Origin: Candidatus Bathyarchaeota archaeon | GTDB taxonomy: Archaea; Thermoproteota; Bathyarchaeia; 40CM-2-53-6; JALHTG01 | Direction: 5' to 3' | NCBI GenBank assembly: GCA_022865705.1 | Contig: JALHTG010000019.1 | Span: forward strand, 11,920-75,919 | Length of the DNA stretch: 64,000 bases | Part shown: piece by piece, positions 2,772 through 4,777 of the stretch | How the letters are laid out: each line of letters begins with the position of its first letter | Numbering within the stretch: the stretch's first letter is position 1 | Notes under the pieces: generated by a model | Databases searched by the model: none | Seen by the model: only the letters and a program-made list of their open reading frames with translations | What the model was told of the DNA's origin: nothing | Position numbers and translations under genes: made by a program

Positions 2772-3602
2772 GTGGAGTCATATCCGGCGTTACTTCTCGA
2801 GAATGCATCAGAGAGAATACTGGTGGTTGCAGATTTGCACATTGGATGGGAGGTCTCGCTTGCTCAAAAAGGCATCCACGTTCCATCTCAGACCCCTAAG
2901 CTTCTTGAAAAGATGATTCAACTCATCAAGACAACGGCTCCCACATCGATCATCTTCCTAGGAGACATCAAACATGCAGTTGAGAAAATTGAGCTTGAAG
3001 AATGGAAAGATGTGCCGGAATTCTTTGAGAAGATCAGTGAGGTAGTCCAAGACATACAGGTTGTGCTTGGAAACCATGACGGAAACCTAGACGCTCTAAC
3101 GACACCCAACGTCAAGATTCACTCATCAAGCGGTGTCAAACTATGGAACAAAGTTGCACTTCTCCATGGCCACGCATGGCCGAAGATCGATCTCCTCGAC
3201 TGTGATACTATGGTGATGGCTCATCTCCATCCAGTAGTTACGTTCACGGACGAACTTGGCTTTCGTATGATACGACCAGCCTGGGTAAGAACCAAGGTTG
3301 GAGGCCACAAGCTCGCAAAGGCCCTTCTCAAGCACATGAAGATCAAACCCGATGGGAGGATTCAGGAGAGTGTAAAGAAGCGCTTTGGCATCGATCTTAC
3401 TGATCAACAATGCATTGTGATCCCATCCTTCAACGATAATCTCGGAGGAAGATCCGTCAACAGAAGAGATAGCAGAGGAAAAATGTCGACCATGATCGGC
3501 CCGATCTTGCGATCTTCAGCGGTCAATTTTGAATTCGCAGAACTCTACCTTCTTGACGGAACGTACCTAGGCACTGTGAAGCATTTGCGCTCATTGAGCT
3601 AG
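2772..3602 (+). CDS. Calcineurin-like metallophosphoesterase (ICC-like, often Lhr-associated)
   Basis: Motifs ADLHIG, LGDIKH, GNHD, HGH, AHLHP and PSFN. Confidence 0.88.
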   Translation: MESYPALLLENASERILVVADLHIGWEVSLAQKGIHVPSQTPKLLEKMIQLIKTTAPTSIIFLGDIKHAVEKIELEEWKDVPEFFEKISEVVQDIQVVLGNHDGNLDALTTPNVKIHSSSGVKLWNKVALLHGHAWPKIDLLDCDTMVMAHLHPVVTFTDELGFRMIRPAWVRTKVGGHKLAKALLKHMKIKPDGRIQESVKKRFGIDLTDQQCIVIPSFNDNLGGRSVNRRDSRGKMSTMIGPILRSSAVNFEFAELYLLDGTYLGTVKHLRSLS

Positions 3603-3721
3603 CATATGGTATGGAATAATCGGAGAGCATGTGCTGAGGAAACAATCGTTGACGGTCTCCTATTCGAGCCAATCAATCTCAGCGTTATCTTAATCAGATA
3701 GTTAGAGCAAACTCGGCCACA

Positions 3722-3878
3722 GCGGGGGTTGCCAAGCCAGGTCAAAGGCGCAGAGCCAACTCAGCGCGTCAGCTTCAGGAGCCTGTCCCGAAGGGGTTCG
3801 AGATTGGAAGGTACGCCTTGCCAACGAAAAGGTTCAAAATGGCATCGAAGAACCATGAAACTCCCTCCCCCCGCACCA
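3722..3878 (+). tRNA. tRNA-Leu(CAG) with three introns (3754-3771, 3803-3830, 3839-3861); CCA encoded
   Basis: Removing the three inserts gives an 88-nt cloverleaf: acceptor stem GCGGGGG/CCCCCGC, discriminator A plus CCA, D arm GCCAAGCCAGGTCAAAGGC, anticodon arm CAGGC-TTCAGGA-GCCTG, long variable arm, and T arm GAGGG-TTCAAAT-CCCTC. Each insert folds into a BHB-type motif. Confidence 0.93.
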
Positions 3879-3907
3879 CATAATATGAGTGAAGAGGAGG
3901 AACAGGC

Positions 3908-4777
3908 TTGATCGTTATTCCTGGCCCGGCATCTGTGAATCTAGGGCGAAGAATCGGGGAGCTGTCGAAGGCGAGAGTTGTCTCAGTTGAGTTCAAGCGT
4001 TTTGCAGACGGAGAGTCATATGTACGGTTTGAAGATGCAGTCAAGAACGAGGATGTAGTCGTTGTTCAGACAACTGGTCCTCCTCAAAACGAAAACCTGA
4101 TCCAACTTCTGCTGATGGCAGACAACGCAAGAGACATGGAGGCCAGAAGCATCACGGCCGTTGTGCCTTACCTCGCTTATGCCAGGCAGGACGATCGGTT
4201 CAGATCAGGTGAAGCATTTAGCATAAGAACCATTGTGACTTTGCTGAAGACGTGCGGCGTGAGCAGAATAGTCACAGTGAACTCGCACAACCCCGCATTG
4301 TTGAAGACTCTGCCTGTGGCAACGGAGGATCTCTCTGCGTTCAGCCTTCTGGCTGAACATTTCAAGAATAGAGGCTTTGAAGGCGCTTTCTCTGCATCCT
4401 TGGGGAAGAAGGGAATGGATGTAGCGATTGAGGCGAACAAGATACTGAAGGGGGGATGCGGCTATGTTTCTACGCAACGAGACAGAGTGGGTGGGGAGGT
4501 CACCATTGAGAAGAAAACCTTGCCAGTTAGGAAAAGGGATGTCGTGGTTTTTGATGATGTTATGAGCAGTGGTAAGTCTATGGCCAAGGCCGTAACCTGG
4601 ATCAAGGAACAAGGAGCAAGAAGAGTGTACGTCGCCTGTGTTCATGTAATTTTGATCGACGACGGTAGAGAACGTGTTCTTAAGAGTGGCGCGGAAGGCA
4701 TCGTGGGCACGGACAGTGTTCCAGGCCCACTCAGTGAGGTATCAATTGCACCTCTGATTGTCAGCACATTGAAGTAG
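3908..4777 (+). CDS. prs: Ribose-phosphate pyrophosphokinase
   Basis: FADGESYVR, PYLAYARQD, and PRPP-binding loop VVVFDDVMSSGKS. Confidence 0.95.
   Translation: MIVIPGPASVNLGRRIGELSKARVVSVEFKRFADGESYVRFEDAVKNEDVVVVQTTGPPQNENLIQLLLMADNARDMEARSITAVVPYLAYARQDDRFRSGEAFSIRTIVTLLKTCGVSRIVTVNSHNPALLKTLPVATEDLSAFSLLAEHFKNRGFEGAFSASLGKKGMDVAIEANKILKGGCGYVSTQRDRVGGEVTIEKKTLPVRKRDVVVFDDVMSSGKSMAKAVTWIKEQGARRVYVACVHVILIDDGRERVLKSGAEGIVGTDSVPGPLSEVSIAPLIVSTLK

Follow-up and report, generated by a model that had tools for sequence, protein, structure and literature searches.

A probable tRNA-Leu(CAG) gene with three bulge-helix-bulge introns at positions 29/30, 51/52 and 59/60 in a Bathyarchaeia-like archaeon

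In a stretch of archaeal DNA of 64,000 nt (the window, by which the whole analysed stretch is meant), two genes are separated by a gap of 305 nt according to the window annotation. Direct reading of this gap finds a 7-nt tRNA acceptor strand that opens the segment 3722-3878 on the plus strand and its complement that closes it, followed by A and CCA. Does this segment encode a functional tRNA, and if so, which bases are removed from its transcript and by what machinery? The initial annotation took it for a tRNA-Leu(CAG) gene with inserts of 18, 28 and 23 nt at positions 29/30, 51/52 and 59/60 and without an intron at 37/38. The analysis described here leads with high confidence to the conclusion that it is a functional tRNA-Leu(CAG) gene of a Bathyarchaeia-like archaeon that carries three bulge-helix-bulge (BHB) introns at these sites. 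The host genome is a MAG of 2.17 Mb in 117 contigs, 91.6% complete and with 6.3% contamination; three relatives of the downstream pyrophosphokinase in the genome collection, with 62-66% identity, are all labelled Bathyarchaeota/Bathyarchaeia. The locus comprises the following features.

2772-3602, plus strand: upstream neighbour, a metallophosphoesterase-like gene
3679-3704, plus strand: conserved 26-nt upstream block, about 18-43 nt before the tRNA, identical in the sister species
3722-3753, plus strand: exon 1, tRNA positions 1-29, which run from the acceptor 5' strand through the D arm to the first three bases of the anticodon stem, placed by reading, ARAGORN and orthologues
3754-3771, plus strand: intron 1, 18 nt, site 29/30, placed by its BHB motif
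3772-3802, plus strand: exon 2, positions 30-51, which complete the anticodon arm with CAG and continue through the variable arm to the first three bases of the T stem, placed by ARAGORN and orthologues
3803-3830, plus strand: intron 2, 28 nt, site 51/52, placed by BHB motif and fold
3831-3838, plus strand: exon 3, an 8-nt piece with positions 52-59, made up of the final two bases of the T-stem 5' strand and six bases of the T loop, placed by ARAGORN and orthologues
3839-3861, plus strand: intron 3, 23 nt, site 59/60, placed by its BHB motif
3862-3878, plus strand: exon 4, with position 60, the 3' strands of the T and acceptor stems, A73 as discriminator and the encoded CCA, placed by reading and ARAGORN
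3908-4777, plus strand: downstream neighbour, a ribose-phosphate pyrophosphokinase gene

Reconstruction and detection of the gene

The introns were cut out by coordinates in a script and the remaining 88 nt were run through ARAGORN, which called the whole length [1,88] tRNA-Leu(cag), with a complete cloverleaf and an encoded CCA. The spliced product has a 7-bp acceptor stem, a 5-bp anticodon stem with anticodon CAG and a 5-bp T stem, together with an 11-nt D loop, a 14-nt variable region (long arm), the T loop TTCAAAT and the discriminator A73. The long variable arm and A73 are features that we take to be identity elements of tRNA-Leu. Since the D loop has 11 nt, the mature offsets 32, 63 and 71 correspond to the Sprinzl sites 29/30, 51/52 and 59/60. 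Site 37/38 is without an insert.

Upstream of the gene, a stretch of 120 nt was compared with that of the sister species (G001). The overall identity is 87 of 128 aligned columns and the 26-nt block at 3679-3704 is fully identical. It holds a BRE/TATA-like CTTAAT at 3689-3694, approximately 30 nt ahead of the mature 5' end, and may be the promoter.

The initial annotation had warned that standard scanners might miss this gene, and all those run on unspliced DNA did miss it. ARAGORN reported no genes in the whole window, nor any on 3650-3950 with its intron option switched on. Rfam gave no match in the window at gathering scores, and no tRNA on 3600-4000 at E up to 10. The sole match of the latter search, sR33 at 3939-3992, was taken as chance. 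A genome-wide search with RF00005 returned 19 matches at E up to 0.001, and their number rose to 38 when E was allowed up to 10; none lies at 3722-3878.

An intron-aware scan was therefore written, in which acceptor pairs with T8 are collected and up to three BHB-like segments are removed. Checks of the T arm, anticodon arm and D stem follow, and each candidate product is then submitted to ARAGORN. By design the scan sees at most three introns per gene and none in the acceptor stem. It recovered the three-intron Leu(CAG) solution unprompted. The relaxed version confirmed 26 loci by ARAGORN in the real genome and none in the reversed (not complemented) genome; the strict version yielded 26 candidates.

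Comparison with relatives

For a comparative view, 40 relatives of the same order (G001-G040) and this MAG (G000) were scanned for Leu(CAG), and an 84-nt solution was obtained in 12 genomes including this MAG. Half of these genes (6 of 12; G031, G017, G008, G034, G029 and G023) have no intron. Four carry the 29/30 intron alone, with lengths of 10, 18, 18 and 17 nt in G015, G024, G039 and G035, respectively, and these genomes belong to two other families of the order. All three introns are present in two genomes, this MAG and its sister species. The scan of G030 returned no Leu(CAG) solution, though a Leu(CAG) exon is present.

The predicted 84-nt mature body could be aligned without gaps to five intron-less Leu(CAG) genes from other genomes of the order, with 78 of 84 identical positions for each of G031, G034 and G029 and 77 of 84 for each of G017 and G008; other Leu genes of the order share 73-81 of the 84 positions. 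This position-for-position match fixes all six splice boundaries to the base. Exon 3, which is only 8 nt long, is uninterrupted in the intron-less orthologues. This bears directly on a two-intron reading of the locus, in which the 18-nt insert and one 59-nt insert (3803-3861) would be removed to leave a body of 76 nt, its variable region short and its T arm made from other bases. Such a solution is listed by the intron-aware scan, is also accepted as tRNA-Leu(cag) by ARAGORN and has a boundary with four central, one inner and four outer pairs. However, the 59-nt insert would delete exon 3, which is contiguous in all six intron-less Leu(CAG) solutions and also present in every other 84-nt Leu gene of the comparison table. 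The resulting Leu tRNA would be missing the long variable arm, which is retained in all compared Leu genes, and among the three solutions listed for the sister species, those with the fewest introns first, there is no 76-nt two-intron solution. The two-intron reading is thus extremely improbable, and the gene is treated below as one with three introns.

Between this MAG and the sister species, the exons differ at none of 88 positions and the introns at 16 of 72 aligned columns (exon versus intron, Fisher p = 1e-6). All three central helices are kept in the sister species through G-U changes (CGAA to CGAG, TGAA to TGGA). As judged from this divergence, the comparison shows selection on the exons and not on the introns. 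In-silico splicing, the intron-less orthologues and the contrast between exon and intron divergence together uphold the three inserts of the initial annotation. Covariation can also be seen in the 29/30 intron, where the central helix ends in a C:G pair in three genomes, in T:G in one and in T:A in two. The exon base of this pair doubles as anticodon-stem position 27, and its partner in that stem changes alongside.

A second Leu(CAG) gene had been named as a point to check, and none was found in the MAG. The exon 2 pattern has a single match within three mismatches, and the gene at 3722-3878 is the only one found in this 91.6% complete genome. The same pattern was found in one of six same-genus genomes and not found in the other five, which are 69-88% complete; the three-intron form hence rests on two species.

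Splice motifs, enzymes and order of cuts

At each intron the boundary sequences can pair over 4 bp, with a 3-nt bulge on one strand at one end and a second on the opposite strand at the other, and an exonic and/or an intronic helix closes the structure. All motif details of the initial annotation were found in place on direct reading. With arrows at the splice boundaries, the motif of intron 1 is AAG GCGC AG↓A ... GCGT CA↓G CTT, with four central pairs (one G-U), two inner pairs and three outer pairs (AAG/CTT). Intron 2 reads TTCG AG↓A (inner hairpin) CGAA AA↓G and has four central pairs, none of them G-U, four inner pairs and no outer pair; its inner hairpin has 8 bp with one bulged G. Intron 3 reads GG TTCA AA↓A TGG...CCA TGAA AC↓T CC, with four central pairs, again without G-U, three inner pairs (TGG/CCA) and two outer pairs. 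Introns 1 and 3 have the full hBHBh' form, and intron 2, which is without the exonic (outer) helix, has the relaxed HBh' form.

These motifs are hardly visible in free folding. The unconstrained fold of the 157-nt precursor is no better than that of shuffles (z = -0.71). Among the BHB parts, the minimum-energy fold contains only the helix and hairpin of intron 2; GCGC pairs in a neighbouring register and the core of intron 3 is absent. In the nearest-neighbour model the cores have probabilities of 1.6e-5 (intron 1), 0.0098 (intron 2) and 0.010 (intron 3). Two 3-nt bulges are costly in a free-energy model, so that recognition has to rely on the enzyme, and with core probabilities this low an enzyme-stabilised or alternative conformation must be assumed.

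The initial annotation held that a broad-specificity endonuclease is needed for such sites and proposed that the EndA of the host be typed; what the genome encodes agrees with this requirement. Two EndA genes (PF01974/PF02778) are present in the MAG, one of 186 aa and one of 176 aa. The 176-aa paralogue has weaker matches to endonuclease folds and a gap opposite the M. jannaschii segment that is presumably the place of the catalytic histidine; it is read, from this alignment, as a putative non-catalytic structural beta subunit. The 186-aa protein, predicted to be the catalytic subunit, has its best matches among the catalytic subunits of heterotetrameric enzymes, those of A. pernix (9e-41), S. 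tokodaii and P. aerophilum, and aligns with them through the crenarchaeal-type loop with a single one-residue gap. The loop residues K44 and R46 of A. pernix are K and K in this protein. The loop, and K44 in particular, confers cleavage of non-canonical and relaxed sites (PMC3241643), and the endonuclease types that cut such sites are (alpha-beta)2 and epsilon2 with the specific loop. Taken together, the alignments support a two-subunit (alpha-beta)2-type EndA with a crenarchaeal-type loop, predicted to cut non-canonical sites. RtcB, an RNA ligase acting on 2',3'-cyclic phosphate and 5'-OH ends, is present as well (PF01139, 591.9 bits, a 507-aa open frame at C99:6177-7484). The EndA and RtcB genes sit on contigs other than that of the window (C59, C10 and C99), in a MAG with 6.3% contamination.

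We infer transcription, cleavage, ligation and cut order of the Leu(CAG) precursor as follows. The gene would be transcribed as a precursor of approximately 157 nt with three protein-spliced introns, and this precursor would form a bulge-helix-bulge at every boundary, of the hBHBh' form for introns 1 and 3 and of the relaxed HBh' form for intron 2. An endonuclease of the (alpha-beta)2 type would cut after the second bulge base on each side. Finally, RtcB, as judged from gene content, would join the four exons to an 88-nt class II tRNA.

The order of the three cuts deserves attention. A neighbouring intron may need removal before the next BHB can form, as described in PMC8450103, and the initial annotation suggested ordered splicing on the grounds that the outer helix of intron 3 is complete only after removal of intron 2. 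The observation itself stands: this helix has 2 bp with intron 2 in place and, as GAGGG/CCCTC of the T stem, 5 bp once intron 2 is gone. An obligatory order, in which intron 2 must go before the endonuclease recognises intron 3, would also fit the rise of the modelled core probability of intron 3 from 0.010 to 0.044 on removal of intron 2, and such a dependence is described for closely spaced archaeal introns (PMC8450103). However, the effect is small and mirrored, as removal of intron 3 lifts the core of intron 2 from 0.0098 to 0.051. The core of intron 3 is already flanked by two outer and three inner pairs, enzymes of the (alpha-beta)2 loop type cut relaxed motifs (PMC3241643), and intron 2 is itself without any outer helix. 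In the thermodynamic model the core of intron 1 is unaffected by removing the other introns. Such small and symmetric modelled effects give no support for a strict order, which is considered unlikely; we think that the order of the three cuts is not strictly fixed.

Public metagenomes provide a further view of the locus. Of the 24 runs listed, 20 contain the DNA stretch; they belong to 15 studies, with samples from sediment, groundwater and wetland, and three of these 20 runs may be the source of the window's DNA. Contigs were compared from four of the 24 runs, namely X20, X23 and X24 (RNA) and X6 (DNA). Those of the independent sediment DNA run X6 cover 3727-3800, 3778-4300 and 3784-3841. One X6 contig has four substitutions inside intron 1 (3761, 3762, 3769 and 3770) and none in the flanking exons; the variant 3769 T>C turns the G-U of the intron 1 central helix into G-C. 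Among the RNA runs, X20, the metatranscriptome run with part of the stretch, covers only 3462-3643, X24 covers only exon 1 (3722-3753) and X23 has no coverage. The X24 contig continues unlike the window and is probably another organism's Leu tRNA. No spliced joints were found in the contigs of X20, X23, X24 and X6, and contigs of standard libraries rarely hold tRNAs.

Could the locus then be a decaying pseudogene, a former tRNA-Leu that was disabled by three insertions and is left unspliced? The contigs of the three RNA runs, in which no spliced joint was found, and the thermodynamically weak predicted BHB cores would be in line with this. Against it stand the comparison with the sister species, with unchanged exons (0 of 88), diverged introns (16 of 72) and conserved BHB pairing, the lack of any other match in the MAG to the anticodon-arm exon of Leu(CAG), the conserved upstream block and the many other tRNA genes of the genome that share the architecture. 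Decay is therefore very improbable, and a functional, spliced gene is the preferred reading.

Introns across the genome and the origin of the T-arm introns

The intron-aware scan of the MAG detected 25 tRNA loci with 43 introns; 3, 8, 7 and 7 loci have none, one, two and three introns, respectively. This census is partial and follows its own criteria, and loci found only by RF00005 are left out. At two loci the homology-supported solution was chosen over the one with the fewest introns, the three-intron form for Leu(CAG) and the two-intron form for Glu(CTC). A call of Ser(GGA) at C10:35116-34871 spans 246 nt, has weak boundaries and coincides in part with a normal RF00005 hit; it was dropped as spurious. 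The other genes with three predicted introns, and two further genes discussed below, were all located by the scan.

C10:35298-35445, plus strand: Lys(TTT), three predicted introns, checked by eye, with clean strict boundaries including one at 37/38
C10:23308-23162, minus strand: Leu(TAA), three predicted introns
C10:26185-26015, minus strand: Tyr(GTA), three predicted introns
C112:354-493, plus strand: Gln(CTG), three predicted introns
C70:3985-4146, plus strand: Pro(TGG), three predicted introns
C99:8894-9042, plus strand: Ser(TGA), three predicted introns
C104:2878-3013, minus strand: Leu(GAG) paralogue, introns at 51/52 and 59/60, none at 29/30
C94:16265-16371, plus strand: Glu(CTC), two introns, one adjoining the anticodon and one of 20 nt at 59/60

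Across the 41 genomes of the order, RF00005 finds 3-30 tRNAs per genome, and 21-30 in those that are 98-100% complete. Even in these the counts are low, and by this rough proxy tRNA interruption seems to be order-wide. In the MAG, two RF00005 hits of 137 nt are near-copies of each other (C52:7988-8124, plus strand, and C58:37237-37373, minus strand), and there are two Cys(GCA) genes (C52:1818-1888 and C107:162543-162613). These could be duplicated tRNA genes or reflect the 6.3% contamination of the MAG.

The distribution of the three introns suggests different ages. As the 29/30 intron of Leu(CAG) is common to two other families of the order, we infer from the gene comparison that it is old. 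The T-arm introns at 51/52 and 59/60 are present in Leu(CAG) of only this species and its sister among the genomes scanned. The Leu(GAG) paralogue is interrupted at the same two T-arm sites, and its body differs from that of Leu(CAG) only within the anticodon arm. Between its 51/52 intron and intron 2 of Leu(CAG) the identity is 80%, compared to a maximum of 70% in 20 shuffles, and a 51/52 intron in Leu(GAG) also occurs in three other families (G019, G013 and G040). With the same two sites and a near-identical paralogue, recombination is the simplest account, and the T-arm introns of Leu(CAG) were probably acquired by recombination with Leu(GAG).

The 59/60 intron of Glu(CTC) starts with ATGG and ends with CCATGAAAA. 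It is 74% identical to intron 3 of Leu(CAG), with shuffle maxima of 60-70% (n=20), part of the likeness being forced by the shared T-loop helix. The two form the best cross-isotype intron pair, and same-isotype pairs reach 80% and 79%. The two introns may belong to one family, or the T-loop helix may have forced them to converge.

A more far-reaching proposal can be built on these data. The genus might have one of the heaviest tRNA-intron loads outside Asgard archaea, with a recent, datable spread of the two T-arm introns through recombination with Leu(GAG) and a 59/60 intron that came from Glu(CTC). The load of the partial census is approximately 1.7 introns per detected gene, with seven three-intron genes, in a lineage whose DNA occurs in groundwater and sediment runs; the published record of P. 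calidifontis is 1.54. We regard this combined proposal as tentative and rather doubtful. If true, it would show concretely how introns can arrive in a gene, a route that the Asgard study had been unable to identify.

Relation to known interrupted tRNA genes

Archaeal tRNA genes can hold up to three introns, and P. calidifontis has 71 introns in 46 genes (PMC8450103). Thermoproteales such as Pyrobaculum calidifontis and Thermofilum pendens likewise have an (alpha-beta)2 endonuclease with the crenarchaeal-specific loop, and their multi-intron genes are likewise missed by plain tRNA finders (PMC4033280, PMC8450103, PMC3218864, PMC3241643). The host described here differs in being a Bathyarchaeia-like MAG whose DNA occurs in groundwater, sediment and wetland metagenomes and not a hot-spring crenarchaeon. 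Evidence for transposed intron families of the Thermoproteales type, in which genes of different isotypes have closely similar introns, is weak here and amounts to one pair, with 74% identity against a shuffled maximum of 70%.

A 2026 preprint describes Asgard archaea with up to five intervening sequences per gene, and makes no mention of Bathyarchaeia. In Asgard archaea, as here, most tRNA genes are interrupted; a gene has on average about two intervening sequences, and these lie at BHB boundaries. Detection by standard tools is incomplete there too, and gains are repeated and lineage-specific. Asgard archaea belong to a different phylum, and against their up to five introns per gene the scan used here sees at most three. 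The initial annotation named Thermoproteales as the best-known hosts of multi-intron tRNAs; the present host is Bathyarchaeia-like and not one of the Thermoproteales.

In Thermofilum pendens and Cyanidioschyzon merolae, permuted tRNAs are processed at site 59/60, where the same T-loop position serves for BHB cleavage and ligation (PMC3218864). In Leu(CAG), by contrast, the 59/60 insert is a plain 23-nt cis intron and the gene is unpermuted. A eukaryotic nuclear tRNA gene with three introns, one of them in the T arm, resembles the present gene in intron number and in the T-arm intron; the eukaryotic endonuclease complex differs. We take both 29/30 and 59/60 to be catalogued sites of tRNA introns; a literature search retrieved no paper that names both. 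A full-text search outside subscription journals and supplements retrieved no paper on tRNA introns of Bathyarchaeia.

Three-intron tRNA genes are already published for Thermoproteales and Asgard archaea, and the Leu(CAG) gene adds a case and not a new kind; the known splicing mechanism is unchanged by it. Its practical consequence lies in annotation. ARAGORN and the Rfam model miss the gene, and with 19 tRNAs found in a 91.6% complete genome such MAGs look tRNA-poor. This apparent lack can distort completeness checks and codon-usage inferences. As a well-supported case with base-exact junctions, the gene lends weight to the view that heavily interrupted tRNA genes also occur beyond hot-spring Thermoproteales and Asgard archaea. 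The series of Leu(CAG) genes with none, one and three introns within one order, together with the Leu(GAG) paralogue, offers material for studying both the manner and the timing of intron gain.
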